From positions 224,001 to 288,000 of the forward strand of contig CAWDVP010000002.1 of the NCBI GenBank assembly GCA_963805945.1: 64,000 nucleotides of DNA, read 5' to 3'. Made by a program: the position numbers and the translations under genes. The notes below the pieces were generated by a model, which saw only the letters and a program-made list of their open reading frames with translations, was not told where the DNA came from and searched no databases. Below are positions 1-12,157 of this stretch, in pieces. Numbering within the stretch: position 1 is the first letter of the stretch; each line of letters begins with the position of its first letter. Source of the stretch: Vulcanimicrobiota bacterium. Lineage in GTDB: Bacteria > Vulcanimicrobiota > Vulcanimicrobiia > Eremiobacterales > Eremiobacteraceae.

Positions 1-36
1 ATCCTCTCCGAGTTCTACGATTGCTGGAGGCATATC

Positions 37-198
37 ATGGAGCTTGGTGGACACATTCACGCCTTTGCGTTATATGCTGGCGTGTTCTTCGGCCAGCTTG
101 CACATACGCTCGAGACGCTGATCACGGGCGGGGCACACCCGGCCGAGACACTCATCACGGGCGGCGTGCATACCGCGGAAACCCTCATTACCGGATAG
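37..198 (+). CDS. Small repeat peptide precursor, 53 aa: MELGGHIHAFALYAGVFFGQLAHTLETLITGGAHPAETLITGGVHTAETLITG
   Basis: GGAGG at 26-30, ATG at 37, TAG at 196-198. Three ETLITG repeats at an 11-codon period that differ only at synonymous positions. Below the ORF-track size cutoff. Confidence 0.85.
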   Translation: MELGGHIHAFALYAGVFFGQLAHTLETLITGGAHPAETLITGGVHTAETLITG

Positions 199-217
199 GG
201 CGATCATCGTCAGGTCC

Positions 218-1549
218 TCATGCGATCTCTCGGCACAGTAAGTCGACGAGCTGAGGATCGTATTGGGTGCCGGCCCGCTCTGAAAGTACGCGCAGCGCTT
301 CCTGCTTGTTCAGTTGCGTGGTCGCATTGTGACCTGTAAGTAGGCACAAATAATCGCGGGTGATCGCGATAATGCGCGAAGCCACAGGGATGCGCGTCAA
401 GCGCATGCCGTGTGGATAGCCAGTGCCGTCGAATGCTTCGCACTGATGTTCAACCGCATAAGCCACCTCTTCCGGAATGATGCGGGGTGCCTTGCGGAGC
501 ACTTTTCCACCCAGTGTAGGATAGCGAAGGGCCTCTTGCTGCTGAGCGGGCGTCAAGTTAATGCCAGCTCGCAGTTCCGGAGTGAGCTTGCACTTCCCGA
601 TCTCGTGGAATTCCGCCGCCCACGCAAGGTTCTCTAAGTCCGCCTTAACCATGCCAAGCTTGCGGCCCATCTGAACCGCAAGGTAGCGGACGTCGCCGGC
701 GAACTGTGCATCATCAGGACTTAACAGGCCAATGAACTCTCGCATCATCTCGTGGAATTGGTTGACGACGAAATCGCGTTCATCGCGGGCCTCAACTGCT
801 TGGATTATGCGCTCGAACATACGCGTGTGCGCGACGACGTAGTAGAAAACAATAGCCCCTAGAATTCCGCCGAAGCCGTACATCCCAGCCAAAAGGTAGG
901 CCCAAAGAGCCGCGACAAAGCCAGCGCGCCAGTAGCGTACGAACGATGCCGGCTGGCCGAGAATTGCGAATCCTAGGATTACTAGTGCATTGTTTACAGT
1001 CTGCCAGATGATCCCAATCCCCACGACGCCGACGAGAACAAGGGGCGCGTAGAGAAAGTGCGATATTCGCGGCGCGAGGCCGAGAATAACTGCATAGGAC
1101 TGGACCATCAAGAAAACCGCTATAACAGATATCCCCAGTTGACCCGCCAATGCTGGTATCGCTTGGGCGGCTGGGCGACCGGCGGCAATCAGGCGCAAGT
1201 GAACGGCGGAAAGACCGACAACCGCAAGCGGTAGCGCCCACCAACCGACCATCGCCGTGGCTGCCGCTAGTATTGCCGCGACCGGCGCATGCACCGCGCG
1301 GAAACCTTCCTGGGGTCGCTCGTTCAGCGCGAGGAAAGCACCTACCAGCACGACGCTGATTATGGTTGCATACGAAGTGTCAAAATGCGGTGGAACGAGC
1401 ACCAAGAGTGCGGCACCCGCAATCAACAGTGCCCAATAGTAAGCGACTTTGAGTCCCTGTCGCCATGCAACAACATCTTGTTGCAGACCAGTTGCTGGAG
1501 CGCTGATCCGCTCGAGTTGCGCCTGCCCTGCCACGGCCATGACGCTCAC
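218..1549 (-). CDS. Multi-pass membrane protein with C-terminal degenerate HD-GYP domain
   Basis: Hydrophobic N-terminal ~240 aa. C-terminal FHEIGK, DGTGYPHG, IPVASRIIA and GTQYDP motifs typical of the HD-GYP fold. Confidence 0.85.
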   Translation of the reverse strand: MSVMAVAGQAQLERISAPATGLQQDVVAWRQGLKVAYYWALLIAGAALLVLVPPHFDTSYATIISVVLVGAFLALNERPQEGFRAVHAPVAAILAAATAMVGWWALPLAVVGLSAVHLRLIAAGRPAAQAIPALAGQLGISVIAVFLMVQSYAVILGLAPRISHFLYAPLVLVGVVGIGIIWQTVNNALVILGFAILGQPASFVRYWRAGFVAALWAYLLAGMYGFGGILGAIVFYYVVAHTRMFERIIQAVEARDERDFVVNQFHEMMREFIGLLSPDDAQFAGDVRYLAVQMGRKLGMVKADLENLAWAAEFHEIGKCKLTPELRAGINLTPAQQQEALRYPTLGGKVLRKAPRIIPEEVAYAVEHQCEAFDGTGYPHGMRLTRIPVASRIIAITRDYLCLLTGHNATTQLNKQEALRVLSERAGTQYDPQLVDLLCREIA

Positions 1550-1636
1550 CAGTGCCTTTCGTCAGGTCCGCGCCCGGGATAACGTCATATTAGCGAGACG
1601 TATGGGGTCGCGACCCTGTGGATAGTATATCGAACA

Positions 1637-1694
1637 TGTGACGCAAATCCCCACGAATTTGTGACAGCCCGCACAGGGTATGACGCTCATCACG
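1637..1694. promoter_or_regulatory. Three CRP/FNR-like TGTGA-N6-TCACA-type sites upstream of the HD-GYP gene
   Basis: TGTGA-cgcaaa-TCCCC (1637), TGTGA-cagccc-GCACA (1660), TATGA-cgctca-TCACG (1679). Confidence 0.4.
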
Positions 1695-1709
1695 CACACG
1701 TGTTCGAAC

Positions 1710-1732
1710 CCCGAGCTTCGCTCGGGCGCTAC
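1710..1732 (-). repeat. GTAG-type REP-like hairpin, family B
   Basis: Minus strand reads GTAG-CG-CCCGAGC-GAA-GCTCGGG. Near-identical copy at 20995-21016 on the + strand. Confidence 0.55.
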
Positions 1733-2745
1733 AGGCCGGTGGGAGAGGCCTCGGGCAGCGGGGCCTCGGTTGGCGTGGCCACCGGCAGCACCGGGGGGAC
1801 TTCCGCAGCGAGGAAGGCGTCGTAGGTCGCCCTGGAGGCCCTGCGGATAAGCCGGGCGCCGTCATCGAGATCGTCCAGGTGCGTCGTCAGCACGCAGATC
1901 ACGTACGGCGAGCCGGGCAACGCGACGATGCCGACGTCGTTGAGCGTGTCGTGCAGCGTGCCCGTCTTGTGCGCCACCACAACCCCGTGCGGCAAAGGCT
2001 CGGGCAGCAACTGGTTGTGCCGCTGCGCCGTGAGAAACGCGAGCATGACGTCGCTGGCCTGCTCGTTGATGAGCCGGCGCGTGGCGATCATGACGAGCAG
2101 GCGCATCATGTCATTGGTGCTCGTGCGCAGCTGGCGGATCGAGGGATCGCTCGCGTGAATGCTGGCGCCCAAGCGCGTCTGGGTCAGCCCCAGCCCGATC
2201 ATGGTCTGATTGATGTTCTCACGCCCGACCAGCCGGATGAGCATGTTCGTGGCCGTGTTGTCGCTGTTCGCGATCATGATCCGCGTGAGGTTGCGGACCG
2301 AGAACGTCATGCCCGCCGCGAAGTCGCACACGTCGCCGTAGCCGCAATCGCGGTCTTCCGGCAGCAGTTCCACTTGGCGATCGAGCGAGAAGCGGCCGAG
2401 CGATTCTTGCCGCAGCACTTCGACCATGACCGCGAGTTTGATCACGCTCGCCGCTGGCAGGTTCTCGTCGCCGTTGATGCTGATCGGCATGCGCCCTTGC
2501 GCGTCCGCGATCGTGATCGCGACCAAACCCGGCGTGTTATTGGCCAGGCGCCGCAGCTCGGGTTCGAGCGCGGCCATGCGAGCATCGCGCGCCACAGGCA
2601 CGTCAGGGGCCGGGAGCACGAGACCGGCGGACATGCCGCCGCCGGCCGCGATGAGCGCAGCAGCGAGCAGCATGGTGAAAAAGGCCCAACGCATACAACG
2701 ACCACTCTTCTTGGCGGCGGCACGGGACCGCCTGCCTTTCGGCAT
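1729..2745 (-). CDS. Class A beta-lactamase-like serine hydrolase (PenP family), probably exported
   Basis: AASVIK (SxxK), SDN and HKTG motifs; hydrophobic N-terminus. True start may be a downstream Met. Confidence 0.85.
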   Translation of the reverse strand: MPKGRRSRAAAKKSGRCMRWAFFTMLLAAALIAAGGGMSAGLVLPAPDVPVARDARMAALEPELRRLANNTPGLVAITIADAQGRMPISINGDENLPAASVIKLAVMVEVLRQESLGRFSLDRQVELLPEDRDCGYGDVCDFAAGMTFSVRNLTRIMIANSDNTATNMLIRLVGRENINQTMIGLGLTQTRLGASIHASDPSIRQLRTSTNDMMRLLVMIATRRLINEQASDVMLAFLTAQRHNQLLPEPLPHGVVVAHKTGTLHDTLNDVGIVALPGSPYVICVLTTHLDDLDDGARLIRRASRATYDAFLAAEVPPVLPVATPTEAPLPEASPTGL

Positions 2746-2777
2746 GAATCGCGCGCTGCGTCACGAACCGACAGCCG

Positions 2778-3677
2778 ATGCGCGACCTTGATATTATCGG
2801 CGTTCCTATCGACTATGGCGCAAGCAAGCATGGCGCGCGCCTGGGACCCGACGCAGTGCGCGAGGCCGGCCTGACCGAAAGCCTCGCGAAACTAGGCCTG
2901 CAGGTCCACGATCAGGGCAACGTCGCGGTGCCGGAGTCCAAGGACGGCGTGGCCGGTGGCCCGGGCCGCCCCCGGCATATCGAGGCCGTACGCCAGGCCA
3001 ACCTCAACCTCGCGGACGCCGTCGAGCGCTCCGCCCGCGCCGGCCGCTTCACCCTGGTCATCGGCGGTGACCACTCCATCGCCATCGGCATCCTGGCCGG
3101 GCTGGCGCGCGCGCAAGGCCCGCAGGGCCTCATCTGGATCGACGCCCATGCCGACCTCAACACCCCTGCCACCAGCCCCACCGGCAACATCCATGGCATG
3201 GCGCTGGCGATCGCGCTCGGCGAGGCCCGCGACATCTTCCCCGCCGCGAAGTTCCCCGCGCCATCGGTGGACGCCAAGCGCTGCGTCTTCATCGGCCTGC
3301 GCGATCTCGACCCCGCCGAGCGTCGCTCGCTGCGTGAGCGCGGGTTCACCTGCTTCACCATGTCCGACATCGACAAGCTCGGCATGAACACCGTCATGCA
3401 ACAAGCGCTGAAGGCCGCCTGTGACGGGCCCGGTAGCGTGCACGTCAGCCTCGACATCGACTCGGTGGATCCGAGCCTCGCCCCCGGCACGGGCACGCCG
3501 GTGGCGGGCGGCCTCACCTATCGCGAAGCGCATCTTGCCATGGAGATGATCGCCGAGAGCGGCTGCGCCGGCTCCATGGAAGTCACCGAAGTGAATCCGG
3601 TGCTCGACGAGCACAGCCGCACGGCGACGATCGCCGTCGAGCTCATATGCTCGGCGCTCGGCAAGAGCATTCTCTAA
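2778..3677 (+). CDS. rocF: Arginase
   Basis: GGDHS, DAHADLNTP..SPTGNIHGM, SLDIDSVDP..APGTGTPV and EVNP motifs. Confidence 0.93.
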   Translation: MRDLDIIGVPIDYGASKHGARLGPDAVREAGLTESLAKLGLQVHDQGNVAVPESKDGVAGGPGRPRHIEAVRQANLNLADAVERSARAGRFTLVIGGDHSIAIGILAGLARAQGPQGLIWIDAHADLNTPATSPTGNIHGMALAIALGEARDIFPAAKFPAPSVDAKRCVFIGLRDLDPAERRSLRERGFTCFTMSDIDKLGMNTVMQQALKAACDGPGSVHVSLDIDSVDPSLAPGTGTPVAGGLTYREAHLAMEMIAESGCAGSMEVTEVNPVLDEHSRTATIAVELICSALGKSIL

Positions 3678-3710
3678 AGGAGGGCGGCGACGCACGACGG
3701 GCTGGTCATC

Positions 3711-4673
3711 GTGATCGTGGTGTGCGCACTCGCCTTCAACGTCGTCGCCGGCTTCAACGACGGCGGCAATCTGCTCGCCGCGGCGGCGTCCAGCCGCACC
3801 ATCGCGCCAGGCGTCGCGTATTTCCTGATCGTCGGTTTCGCGTTTGTCGGCCCCTTCGTCTTCGGGACCGCGGTGGCCACCACGTTGGGGGCAGGCATCG
3901 CCGATTACACGACGTTGGGAGCGCCTTTGCTGCTCGCCGCCGTCCTCGCCGCTGTGGTCGCCGTGCTCGTCGCGTACGCCGCACGTGTCCCCACCATGAT
4001 GTCGCTCGCGCTCCTGTGCGCCATGGTGGGCTCGCTGCTCGTCGGCCCCGGGGCAGGCGTCATCCATTGGCCAGGCGTCGTCAAGGTCGCGTTGAGCACG
4101 TCAGGCTCGGCGCTGGTGGGCCTGCTCGCGGGCATGGCCGCCTATGCGGTGCTGCGCTTCCTCTTGCGGCCGGTATCGCGTGCGGCCGGCGACCGCCTCA
4201 TGCACCTGCAGTACGGCACCGTCGCGCTCCAAGCGCTTGGCTACGGCGCGAACGACGCCGAGAAGATGATGGGCATGATGGCGGCCGCAGGCGCTTTGCA
4301 GGCTGGTTCGCACGTCTTCGCGGTGCCGTTGTGGGCGATCGCCGGCGCGATAGCCGCCTTTGCGATGGGCATGGCGGTCGGCGGACTGCGAGTCGCCAAG
4401 ACCGTCGGCGGCAAGCTCTTCACCATCCGCCCGCAGCACGCGCTCGCGTTTCAGGGTGCGGCCGGTTCCACGGTGATCGCCGCCGCGCTGCTCGGCGCGC
4501 CGCTTTCCACAACCGAGACGACGGCGAGCGCCATCGTCGGCGTCGGGGCGATAGCACAGCCGCGACGCGTCCATTGGGATGTCGTCGCGCAAATCGCGCG
4601 CGCGTGGCTGCTGACCGTGCCCATAGCGCTCGCGGCCGGCGCGCTCGCTGGATTGATCGTGCGATGGCTCTGA
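3711..4673 (+). CDS. Inorganic phosphate transporter, PiT family
   Basis: GFNDGGN and GANDAEK signature repeats, multi-TM, followed by a DUF47 gene. Start may be ACG at 3690. Confidence 0.85.
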   Translation: MIVVCALAFNVVAGFNDGGNLLAAAASSRTIAPGVAYFLIVGFAFVGPFVFGTAVATTLGAGIADYTTLGAPLLLAAVLAAVVAVLVAYAARVPTMMSLALLCAMVGSLLVGPGAGVIHWPGVVKVALSTSGSALVGLLAGMAAYAVLRFLLRPVSRAAGDRLMHLQYGTVALQALGYGANDAEKMMGMMAAAGALQAGSHVFAVPLWAIAGAIAAFAMGMAVGGLRVAKTVGGKLFTIRPQHALAFQGAAGSTVIAAALLGAPLSTTETTASAIVGVGAIAQPRRVHWDVVAQIARAWLLTVPIALAAGALAGLIVRWL

Positions 4674-4696
4674 TAACTCGAGGGAGGTAGCACCCC

Positions 4697-5314
4697 ATGT
4701 GGCTGTCCGATTTGTTCACCGCCCGCAAGCAGCGGGTGTTCCACGAGCTGCTCATGGCGCAGTGCGGCACGCTGCTCGAGGCCGCGCACCTGCTCGAACG
4801 TTTCTTCGCGCGTGAGTCGACGACCGCGGTCGAGCAGGCCGACGCACTCGATAAGCGCTCCGAAGAGATCCTCGAGCAGATCGTCGCCGCGCTCACCGAC
4901 ACCTTCGTGACGCCCTTCGACCGCCAGGACATCTACAATCTCAGCGAAGCGCTCGACGACATGATTGATTATCTCGACAACGCCGCGCGCGAGGTGGTCC
5001 TCTTCGAGGTCGCGGCGACGCCGGCGATGATCGAGATCGCGCACATCCTCAGCGGTGCCGCGAACGACATCAACATCGCCGTGCGCACCATCGCGAGCGA
5101 TCCGAAGACGGCGGCCGCGGCGGCGACCGCGGCCTCGCTTGCCGAGGAGAAGGTCGAGGACGTCTACCGGCGCACCGTCGCGCATCTTTTCGACAGCGCC
5201 GACTTCCACCATATCTTCAAGGTGCGCGAGATCTATCGCCACCTGAGCAACAGCGCCGACCGCGCCGACGATATCGGCAAGCTGATCGGCAAGGTCGTGG
5301 TGAAGGTCGCCTAG
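4697..5314 (+). CDS. DUF47 / PhoU-like phosphate transport regulator
   Basis: TFVTPFDRQDIY motif; GGAGG RBS; operonic with pit. Confidence 0.88.
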   Translation: MWLSDLFTARKQRVFHELLMAQCGTLLEAAHLLERFFARESTTAVEQADALDKRSEEILEQIVAALTDTFVTPFDRQDIYNLSEALDDMIDYLDNAAREVVLFEVAATPAMIEIAHILSGAANDINIAVRTIASDPKTAAAAATAASLAEEKVEDVYRRTVAHLFDSADFHHIFKVREIYRHLSNSADRADDIGKLIGKVVVKVA

Positions 5315-11336: not shown

Positions 11337-12157
11337 CAGTTCGTGTGCCCCCCGGGCAGCCAGCCCTTGGCTTGCAGTGCTTGCGCGATGCGCGTGCGCA
11401 GCGCGTCTTCTGCCGCGCTCACGCCGCTCTCCGGCGCGCGCATCGACACGCTATAGGTCGCCTGCTGCGCATCGAAATCTTCGAGCCTGATGACGACCTC
11501 TTCCGACTTGACCGATATCGCGGTCGCCGCATCGGCGACGATCCCGCGGAGGCCGTCCTGCATCTCGTTCGCGCCGGCGCACCACGGCAGGACGAGTTTG
11601 ATGTCGATGCGTCGCCGCGCTTTGCTGCCGTTGGTGACCGCGTAGATGTTGCCGTTGGGGATGAACAGCGTCCGCCCGCCCTTATCGATGAGCCGCGTGG
11701 TCCGGATGCCGACCCCCACGACGATGCCGCTCACCACAATGCCGCCGACCCCGAGCGTGAGCTCGACATAGTCGCCGATCTCGAACTGGTCCTGGGTGAA
11801 GATCGCGTAGCCCGCGAGCCAGTCGCGCACGAGCGCCTGCGCGCCAAAGGCGAGCGCAGCGGTGACCGCTCCGGCGCCCCACACCGCCGAGGTGACGTCG
11901 ACCTGCCAGATGTCGAGCAGCACGAGCACGAGCACCACGACGACGACGAATGAGATGACCGACTTGAGCGGATCGACATAGGTCGACGCGCGTGACTTCT
12001 GCCCCTCGGTGTGCGGTGCGAAGAGGCGGTCGATCAATGCGAGCACCAGCCGCCACGCCACGAACGCGACCGCCAAGGCGATGAGCGTTTCGACCGCGTG
12101 GACGTAGATGTCGTGTCGCGTCAGCGATGGCACAGTTTCGTTCGGCGTCGTCTGCAA
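11336..12157 (-). CDS. Small-conductance mechanosensitive channel family protein
   Basis: AFGAQALVRD..G, GDYV and IPN motifs; three TM segments. Confidence 0.85.
   Translation of the reverse strand: MQTTPNETVPSLTRHDIYVHAVETLIALAVAFVAWRLVLALIDRLFAPHTEGQKSRASTYVDPLKSVISFVVVVVLVLVLLDIWQVDVTSAVWGAGAVTAALAFGAQALVRDWLAGYAIFTQDQFEIGDYVELTLGVGGIVVSGIVVGVGIRTTRLIDKGGRTLFIPNGNIYAVTNGSKARRRIDIKLVLPWCAGANEMQDGLRGIVADAATAISVKSEEVVIRLEDFDAQQATYSVSMRAPESGVSAAEDALRTRIAQALQAKGWLPGGHTN

Follow-up and report, generated by a model that had tools for sequence, protein, structure and literature searches.

At the start of a 64,000-nucleotide (nt) stretch of the genome of a Vulcanimicrobiota bacterium (the window; positions 224,001 to 288,000 of contig CAWDVP010000002.1, source genome G000) lie two convergent genes, one encoding a small repeat-bearing peptide and the other a membrane protein that ends in a degenerate HD-GYP domain. 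The peptide gene (37..198, + strand) specifies 53 amino acids (aa) and a stop (MELGGHIHAFALYAGVFFGQLAHTLETLITGGAHPAETLITGGVHTAETLITG): a hydrophobic, His-rich N-terminal part is followed by three 11-residue units of the form H-x-x-ETLITG-G, whose ETLITG cores lie at 112..129 (GAGACGCTGATCACGGGC), 145..162 (GAGACACTCATCACGGGC) and 178..195 (GAAACCCTCATTACCGGA), all on the + strand, with the stop codon TAG (196..198) immediately after the third. The last 36 nt of its 5' untranslated region (UTR), about 250 nt long, fall within the window (1..36, +) and include the Shine-Dalgarno (SD) sequence GGAGG at 26..30, 6 nt ahead of the ATG; the promoter and the remaining UTR lie upstream, in a genomic stretch that spans the window start (L002, of which 11746..12036 correspond to G000:C2:223746-224036). 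The gene stands free some 300 nt downstream of an ilvE-like gene and, because an in-frame stop precedes it, is not the tail of a larger gene.

The opposing open reading frame (ORF; 218..1549, - strand) is 443 aa long, or 440 aa from a conserved ATG at 1540. Its product, referred to below as the TM-HD-GYP protein (TM, transmembrane), is composed of a membrane domain (aa 1-240; 821..1540, -), a long helical linker (aa ~241-264; 749..820, -) and an output domain of HD-GYP fold (218..748, -, stop included; aa ~265-440 in the 440-aa form). The HD-GYP stop codon occupies 218..220 and that of the peptide ends at 198, which leaves a spacer of 19 nt (199..217) in which separate terminators would not fit. 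An earlier sequence-only reading of the window, which had proposed these genes as a peptide-receptor pair, put the stops about 20 bp apart and the block from 1 to about 1700 in DNA poorer in GC than the housekeeping genes. The measured gap agrees with the first statement. The second also stands, GC being 0.55-0.61 across 1..1650 against 0.64-0.73 in the flanks, with the dip beginning about 400 nt before the window. Most relatives share this dip (means of 0.55 in the UTR-plus-peptide part and 0.58 in the HD-GYP gene, where the flanks have 0.61 and 0.63), and their convergent gene ends lie +19 to -4 nt apart. At two further loci (L017 and L018, from genomes G008 and G023) the HD-GYP protein has an extra C-terminal tail of about 18 aa and therefore overlaps the peptide ORF on the opposite strand by about 62 nt.

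Comparative sequence evidence clearly marks the small ORF as a real, translated gene under coding selection. A small ORF converging on the HD-GYP gene is present at 20 loci, G000 included, of the window's family (f1), a group of uncultured soil bacteria within Eremiobacterota; at 19 of these an ATG follows GGAGG or AAGGAG by 6-9 nt, and the twentieth (G012) was caught by the peptide profile described below. The frame is open at every locus despite protein identities below 30% between genera. The three ETLITG copies of the window, already recognised as a repeat by the earlier reading, differ pairwise at 2, 6 and 5 codon positions, which amounts to 13 synonymous differences, all at third positions, and no non-synonymous one. 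Within-peptide core comparisons in six genomes of the genus give 53 synonymous against 3 non-synonymous differences (summed over pairs, which are not independent). It is because of this excess of silent change, the SD conserved at 19 of 20 loci, and ratios of non-synonymous to synonymous differences per site (pN/pS) of 0.28-0.89 for the whole peptide between species that translation is concluded, and the same comparisons indicate a peptide that evolves fast and yet is constrained. Between species the cores change in concert (ETLIT, ETIIA, ESLVNP, DQMIN/DQLIN), and a metagenome relative carries four copies of DSLIN.

Across the family the peptides are 33-64 aa long, hydrophobic, and rich in Gly and His. 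Outside the window's genus, 27 of 28 distinct peptides measure 33-43 aa and combine a conserved N-terminal part, containing two LGGVL-type motifs about ten residues apart and 2-5 histidines, with a variable tail that bears a single H-x-x-D-[ST]-hydrophobic motif. The more general tail motif, H-x-x-[DE]-x-hydrophobic-hydrophobic, occurs once in most genera and in 3-4 copies in the window's genus; genus g8 has DIILK/DIIIK-type repeats instead (two genomes, one of them unpublished). The maximum 19-residue hydropathy reaches 1.8-2.2, the range of membrane helices, at 10 of 19 loci. Judged on its layout, a conserved head with a variable tail fits either a leader with a core or a membrane anchor with a contact tail.

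The sequence-only reading had supposed that the peptide is exported, and this part of it finds no backing: neither a signal peptide nor a conserved double-glycine or other cleavage site was found at the family loci, GG following the core only in G000 while the other species of the genus have AG, AS or NP, and there is no conserved Cys. The ORFs some 6 kb upstream and some 4 kb downstream (L002 6000..14000 and window 1..4700) showed no peptidase, exporter or processing gene; they were read by eye, only the neighbouring beta-lactamase-like (bla-like) gene being scanned against Pfam. The short, hydrophobic, His/Gly-rich form with one C-terminal motif that prevails in most genera suggests a small partner in the membrane rather than a secreted pheromone. 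Searches of Pfam, NCBIfam and the ESM Atlas with the peptide returned nothing meaningful. Two other identities were considered and rejected. A leader peptide of a branched-chain amino acid attenuator, which the Thr/Leu/Ile-rich repeats beside ilvE might suggest, does not agree with an ORF that lies downstream of ilvE behind its own promoter and has no same-strand gene after it. A graspetide, or another precursor of a ribosomally synthesised and post-translationally modified peptide, would call for an ATP-grasp or other modifying gene, and reading the flanks by eye revealed none.

The larger protein had been read as a multi-TM N-terminus without a soluble sensor joined to an HD-GYP fold, and searches and models return the same picture. 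Its C-terminal part matches Pfam HD_5 (1.4e-25 over aa 287-434, plus a sub-threshold HD match), the first ~260 aa being unmatched; Foldseek aligns the fold with 4mcw and 9rbz (TM-score 0.76-0.78 on the target) and with 4r8z, and a profile search of the domain matches 5z7c, 4r8z and 4mcw. For the HD-GYP protein PmGH, the published description gives E185, H189, H221, D222, H250, H276, H277 and D305 as metal ligands and states that alanine substitutions abolish activity at each of them except E185 and D305 (PMC4159591). At these eight positions the G000 protein reads D, F, H, E, Y, H, Q and R, so that E185 corresponds to D, H189 to F, D222 to E, H250 to Y, H277 to Q and D305 to R, with H221 and H276 kept; four of the eight are counted as replaced. 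All 16 aligned sequences have F at the H189 position, and the HH pair (H276/H277) reads F-H in other genera. The GYP motif and the equivalent of Lys225 are retained (DGTGYP, HEIGK), two of the 16 aligned relatives having GQP or GGP. Residues R314 and K317, which contact cyclic di-GMP (c-di-GMP), correspond to H and T in G000, an assignment of moderate confidence taken from one ungapped phmmer alignment to 4mcw in a divergent region.

From this comparison the HD-GYP domain appears degenerate, and because metal ligands and, in G000, both aligned contact residues are replaced, hydrolysis of c-di-GMP is unlikely and pseudo-HD-GYP, as the earlier reading had called the protein, is a fair name for a domain that has kept its fold and GYP motif. 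A c-di-GMP output, as the earlier reading had proposed, is doubtful. Signalling by c-di-GMP is itself present in G000, which has six GGDEF matches. The literature suggests that degenerate HD-GYP proteins act by binding rather than catalysis. One of them, Bd1817 (PDB 3tm8), is among the fold matches here and likewise combines an HD-GYP fold with an incomplete motif set; it differs in that the present protein keeps GYP and has lost four metal ligands, and in its N-terminal domain, which is a soluble DUF3391 (bioRxiv 10.1101/2021.11.05.467447). As a separate observation, the HD-GYP gene is split or bears stops in four assemblies of few contigs (G005:C2:644754-646078; G025:C5:892899-894091; G029:C8:357986-359237; G031:C4:373967-375253), in each of which the adjoining peptide ORF is intact; sequencing error or real decay may be responsible.

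The N-terminal 240 residues were modelled as six long helices joined by short loops, without a soluble sensor domain (predicted local distance difference test, pLDDT, 83; predicted TM-score, pTM, 0.80), and the linker as a helix over residues 240-273 at low to medium pLDDT. By sequence comparison this membrane domain is, as far as the searches reach, an orphan. No Pfam family was found at E<=10 by hmmscan of 16 members, and the MASE9 model (PF20972) had no match at E<=10 in the 16 members or in the six-frame translation of the G000 genome. A profile of the 16 members, searched against 1.84 billion representative proteins, gave 20 matches, all from its own family; those long enough for a second domain are all of TM-plus-HD-GYP size, the domain thus being found only with this HD-GYP, and a word-based search returned 22 close relatives of the TM-HD-GYP protein. 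Among ESM-Atlas clusters, those closest to it (score 0.91-0.92) have MASE9 in 10-16% of members, which is a lead only. MASE9-HD-GYP proteins (TM1467, HdgA) are described as having a membrane sensor directly N-terminal to HD-GYP, with intramembrane ligand binding proposed (bioRxiv 10.1101/2021.11.05.467447). The present protein shares that arrangement of an integral-membrane sensor before HD-GYP, and differs in leaving the Pfam MASE9 model unmatched and in occurring only with this HD-GYP, whereas MASE9 proteins are described with other outputs too; the accessible part of that account mentions no partner peptide.

Structure comparison gives another lead. When the model was compared with 48,161 chains using VIA-align, the top 15 were all S components of energy-coupling factor (ECF) transporters (RibU, FolT, PanT, BioY, ThiT, NikM, CbiM and BtuM), with Z of 7.6-11.7, the next unrelated chain having Z of 7.2. 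RibU (5kbw) reaches Z 11.7 with a root-mean-square deviation of 2.7 over 149 aligned residues, and NikM (4m5c) Z 11.2 with 181 aligned. As a lead from the model, the membrane domain may be a small-ligand-binding bundle that is S-component-like in fold, which would not imply membership of that family, and, being fused to HD-GYP, the domain is more likely to be a sensor than a transporter.

The two genes share one distribution. A peptide profile was run over 61 related genomes, namely G000, 31 relatives in family f1 and 29 genomes of the sister families f2 and f3, whose source names are mostly Eremiobacteraeota or Vulcanimicrobiota, with a few under other names. It gave 26 matches in 25 genomes, all in f1 (G000 and 24 of the 31 relatives, against none of the 29), and each of the 26 lies no more than 31 nt from the end of a TM-HD-GYP match. 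There is one peptide match per genome in 24 of the 25; the second pair of G001 stands on a contig of 2,945 bp (C32), is cut inside its HD-GYP gene and does not provide an independent context. Two genomes of genus g5 have a partial N-terminal TM-HD-GYP match and no peptide match, G019 being cut by a contig end and the other being G010. The latter is one of three unpublished genomes (G010, G013 and G016), which supply 2 of the 25 peptide-positive genomes and one partial match; they were left out of the alignments (A1-A5) and both structure models, and no conclusion rests on them.

Scans of genomes and metagenomes added 49 loci (14 species genomes and 35 metagenome contigs), 46 of which carry the peptide just past the HD-GYP gene. 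Of the three that do not, two are cut by contig ends, and the third, in which a truncated HD-GYP is joined to unrelated sequence, looks chimeric. Neither a TM-HD-GYP homologue without a neighbouring peptide nor a peptide beside a different receptor, both of which the earlier reading had named as speaking against a pair, was found: a convergent peptide gene accompanies every homologue whose contig includes the downstream DNA, and no peptide was detected elsewhere. A metagenome contig (L071 418..2557) is the only locus without an HD-GYP part; its membrane-domain ORF breaks off at about 229 aa, an unrelated large ORF follows, and it is probably chimeric.

The flanking genes help to place the origin of the pair. 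Both genes are missing from one relative that is 97% complete (G011), where two unknown ORFs and a GST-like gene fill the interval from ilvE to the bla-like gene. Among sister-family genomes, G055 and G045 have ilvE and the bla-like gene side by side and convergent, with ~180 and ~130 nt between them; in G037 and G032 other genes intervene. Because sister families have ilvE and the bla-like gene directly adjacent, the pair behaves, on this comparison, as one inserted block of about 1.9 kb that was gained once and lost together. The tight convergent layout has since persisted over a divergence across which the HD-GYP proteins are only 33-40% identical.

The bla-like gene itself (window 1729..2745, -) is the immediate upstream neighbour of the HD-GYP gene, in the same orientation, and is of the class-A-type beta-lactamase family (Pfam Beta-lactamase2, 2.4e-55); its product has an N-terminal hydrophobic stretch, and the gene is syntenic across the family and the sister families. 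Other cargo seen at the ilvE/bla-like junction includes the GST-like gene with two tandem, similar unknown ORFs (G011, L026 1500..3400), a GT39-like membrane gene (G032, L027) and an unrelated 185-aa ORF (G037, L028), and the junction may be a recurrent insertion spot.

Related palindromes are found at the control regions of both genes. The peptide promoter is conserved (-35 TTGnnn, a spacing of 17-18 nt, TATAAT), with TGTGA-N6-TCACA 3-7 nt later and a 5' UTR of 190-290 nt across loci; the palindrome is perfect at 13 of 19 loci and has one mismatch at the other 6. G000 holds only two perfect sites in 2.3 Mb: that of the peptide gene, which is the strongest of the genome and overlaps the predicted transcript start, and one at C6:34728 inside a pilC/gspF-like coding region, which is uninformative alone. 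A weight matrix was built from the 19 peptide-promoter sites, two of which (L009 and L021) come from unpublished genomes and also enter the promoter, SD/ORF and GC comparisons. With this matrix, related palindromes appear 70-145 nt upstream of the HD-GYP start with p<=0.014 in 11 of 18 loci, that is, in all six loci of the genus (p ~0.001-0.002 per 200-nt window) and in five of other genera (p ~0.002-0.014). The window has two such CRP-type palindromes (1660..1695), TGTGACAGCCCGCACA at 1660..1675, one mismatch from TGTGA-N6-TCACA, and GTATGACGCTCATCACGC at 1678..1695, which scores 13.8 bits with the position weight matrix, the empirical p being ~0.001 per 200-nt window of G000. CRP-type proteins read TGTGA-N6-TCACA. 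A CRP-family gene on contig C6 of G000 has cNMP_binding, HTH_Crp_2 and Crp domains, and its recognition helix (...TTRETVNRML) aligns with ...ASRETVNKAL of Mycobacterium tuberculosis Crp (PDB 3d0s). On these motifs a CRP-family regulator is predicted to bind the palindromes at both genes.

The same matrix draws attention to a region outside the window (G000:C6:38060-41530). Its five best sites in the genome include two palindromes of the TGTGAC-N4-GTCA type, each some 200 nt ahead of one of a tandem pair of type IV pilin genes that start at C6:38275 and C6:38996. A third pilin-like gene, a prepilin peptidase and the CRP-family regulator gene follow, the last at 1431..2132 of L030 (C6:39400-42000 of G000). 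The third pilin-like gene (L030 79..607) lies in two frames, its GFTLIELM N-terminal part in one and the rest in the other, which suggests a frameshift or an assembly error. The peptide/HD-GYP module may be part of a pilus regulon.

The peptide UTR folds to -60 kcal/mol in the six-sequence alignment of the genus and contains a 9-bp hairpin with one compensatory pair and the loop TGGCAGT. In the source genome this hairpin (L002 11956..11986, 44 to 14 nt upstream of window position 1; 9-12 bp) has no Rfam match, and its loop, TGGCAG(T), is kept across genera though the stems differ. A search of L002 11500..13800 against Rfam at E<=1 returned no family, and the 5' UTR is therefore not a described riboswitch. 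In the genus a 12-bp form of the hairpin together with a T-run scores as a terminator on the - strand, upstream of the peptide ORF, so that transcription of the HD-GYP gene may continue antisense across that entire ORF; in other genera the - strand T-run was not seen after the hairpin by eye, and the SD lies within a short local inverted repeat or hairpin (by eye, from the alignment).

Coding selection on the peptide, strict co-distribution, gain as one block, a degenerate catalytic site and shared palindromes are what the analysis establishes about the pair. It is a real two-gene module, hitherto undescribed and a member of none of the known systems compared here; at the level of titles and abstracts, the open-access literature describes no HD-GYP protein paired with a small peptide gene. 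A functional link of some kind between the two genes is probable. The reading favoured here for that link, put forward tentatively and as a possibility, is that the peptide stays at the membrane as the cognate partner of the S-component-like bundle, with the dead HD-GYP domain as a non-catalytic output and both genes under a CRP-type regulator. The peptide would reside in or on the cytoplasmic membrane and would bind the six-helix domain, either as its cognate ligand or as an accessory subunit. From there the long linker helix would relay the signal to the HD-GYP domain, which, no longer hydrolysing c-di-GMP, would act through contacts with proteins or by binding nucleotides. The two genes would be coupled in expression in two ways, through the CRP-family regulator acting at the palindromes of both and through the tail-to-tail layout, which would make the transcripts mutually antisense. 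MgrB-PhoQ, SafA-PhoQ and CbiN-CbiM offer parallels in which the target of a hydrophobic peptide of ~30-50 aa is the membrane domain of a larger protein. Of these, CbiN is the small partner of an S-component-type protein, and S components are the fold class that the membrane domain here resembles. There is, however, no sequence relation to any of the three, the genes for MgrB and SafA do not lie tail-to-tail with that of their target, and the triplicated acidic tail of the present peptide has no counterpart among them.

Several observations weigh against this reading. All ~70 loci with enough flank share the order ilvE / peptide / HD-GYP / bla-like (and arginase too), and because every locus shares this one inherited synteny, conserved adjacency is not independent evidence; adjacency and co-loss may reflect a single insertion and physical linkage. 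Core types follow the species tree within the genus, and any co-variation of core and membrane domain is inseparable from phylogeny. The S-component Z scores, for an all-helix bundle, stay under ~13, in the range that the tool flags as a possibly common arrangement, and Foldseek with the membrane-domain model found nothing at E<=0.001. The peptide of the window's own genus is much less hydrophobic (maximum hydropathy 0.6-1.2) and carries a net charge of -3 to -5, a poor fit to a membrane-embedded partner. Upstream of the HD-GYP gene the palindromes are weak or absent in 7 of 18 loci, and the genomes, being related, do not count as independent samples. RNA data are limited to two contigs of relatives from a single small soil metatranscriptome of 24 million letters, which at 90-99% likeness cover the 5' UTR and the start of the peptide ORF, none lying on the HD-GYP gene, and which are no proof of transcription. 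DNA runs of relatives match the same conserved UTR and ORF-start part, none of the sequencing runs held half of the sampled words of the stretch, and such matches show neither transcription nor silence. Overall, the peptide-receptor proposal is partly supported. Co-distribution speaks for it; against its full form speak the shared synteny, which takes force from adjacency, the export or processing features looked for and not seen at these loci, with hydrophobic single-motif peptides of 33-43 aa outside the genus, and the doubtful c-di-GMP output.

It is also possible, though doubtful, that the genes are coupled in expression only, by shared CRP-type control and mutual antisense transcription, while the peptide, for instance as a small membrane protein or one akin to a toxin, has a job of its own and makes no contact with the HD-GYP protein. 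With stops as close as they are, the 3' ends are predicted to overlap; in the genus the - strand terminator-like hairpin lies beyond the whole peptide ORF; and a hydrophobic peptide of ~36 aa behind a long structured UTR, with its SD in a local hairpin in other genera, recalls type I toxins. The likeness to type I toxin-antitoxin and excludon-type pairs covers the small hydrophobic peptide, the UTR, and the overlapping convergent units predicted from the layout. However, typical type I toxin loci differ from this gene, which is vertically inherited at a fixed syntenic place and single-copy in nearly every genome. Its antisense partner would be the mRNA of a signalling protein, and in other genera the - strand T-run was not seen by eye after the hairpin.

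A further account, likewise doubtful and a little less credible, sees the genes as neighbours by descent only, inserted together or successively between ilvE and the bla-like gene and unrelated in function. The cargo of this junction does vary by lineage (G011, G032, G037), and as synteny of the region is family-wide, co-occurrence carries little independent weight. Yet the tight convergent overlap has been kept while the HD-GYP protein diverged, a palindrome motif is common to both genes, both are absent together in G011, and wherever the DNA is intact the membrane domain is accompanied by the peptide.

That the peptide is an exported precursor, cleaved to release identical cores (ETLITG and its species variants) that are sensed from outside in the manner of AgrC or ComD, is unlikely. 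The conserved N-terminal part with a hypervariable C-terminal motif is laid out like a leader with a core; the 3-4 cores within a genome are identical in protein although saturated with synonymous differences, and from one species to the next the copies change in concert, as they do in multi-copy pheromone precursors such as yeast alpha-factor; and the pocket of an S-component-like fold, if the model holds, would be sized for small ligands. Against these points stand the lack of a signal peptide, a GG after the core that is confined to G000 and not found in G001, G003 or G006, the failure of the by-eye reading (with its single Pfam-scanned gene) to reveal a peptidase or exporter nearby, and the fact that in most genera one motif copy sits at the C-terminus of a hydrophobic peptide, no cleavage signal being conserved. 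AgrD/AgrC and ComC/ComD likewise combine a polytopic sensor that lacks a soluble sensor domain with a small precursor encoded beside it, conserved in its N-terminal and variable in its C-terminal part, but here no AgrB- or ComAB-like gene was seen nearby, the genes converge instead of forming one operon, no cleavage site is conserved, and the output is a degenerate HD-GYP, HD_5/HD being the only recognised domain, in place of a histidine kinase. Alpha-factor and the multi-core precursors of cyanobactins and graspetides share with the window's peptide several identical, spacer-separated cores that are the same within a species and differ between species; here, in contrast, no modifying enzyme, protease or exporter is adjacent, and most family members have a single motif. 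The fullest form of this idea, rather improbable as it stands, is a polyprotein-type pheromone with a leader and 3-4 identical cores of 5-7 residues, a co-evolving receptor of S-component fold, a dead HD-GYP domain, and an output to type IV pili that share the CRP-type operator; if true, it would be a case of kinase-less peptide sensing without a known processing system, in an uncultured phylum. Lastly, the notion that the small ORF is untranslated, the region being only the HD-GYP 3' UTR with its terminator or a non-coding RNA, can appeal to a peptide without a database family and to the antisense position relative to the predicted 3' UTR, but is very hard to reconcile with the conserved SD and ATG, the frame kept open everywhere and the near-exclusively silent core differences.

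To our knowledge, sensors with a membrane bundle as their sole input domain are common, and almost none has a known signal. In the present case a candidate partner is encoded at the very tail of the sensor gene and has been kept family-wide, with unusually clear signs of selection in the form of identical cores that differ at silent sites. Should the two proteins not interact, the locus would still offer a clean, conserved small-protein gene outside any standard annotation family. The question of the signal can be put to the test with two small genes, and an answer would give the degenerate HD-GYP domain a function. For Eremiobacterota, a phylum known largely from metagenomes, the pair would provide a first handle on signalling.

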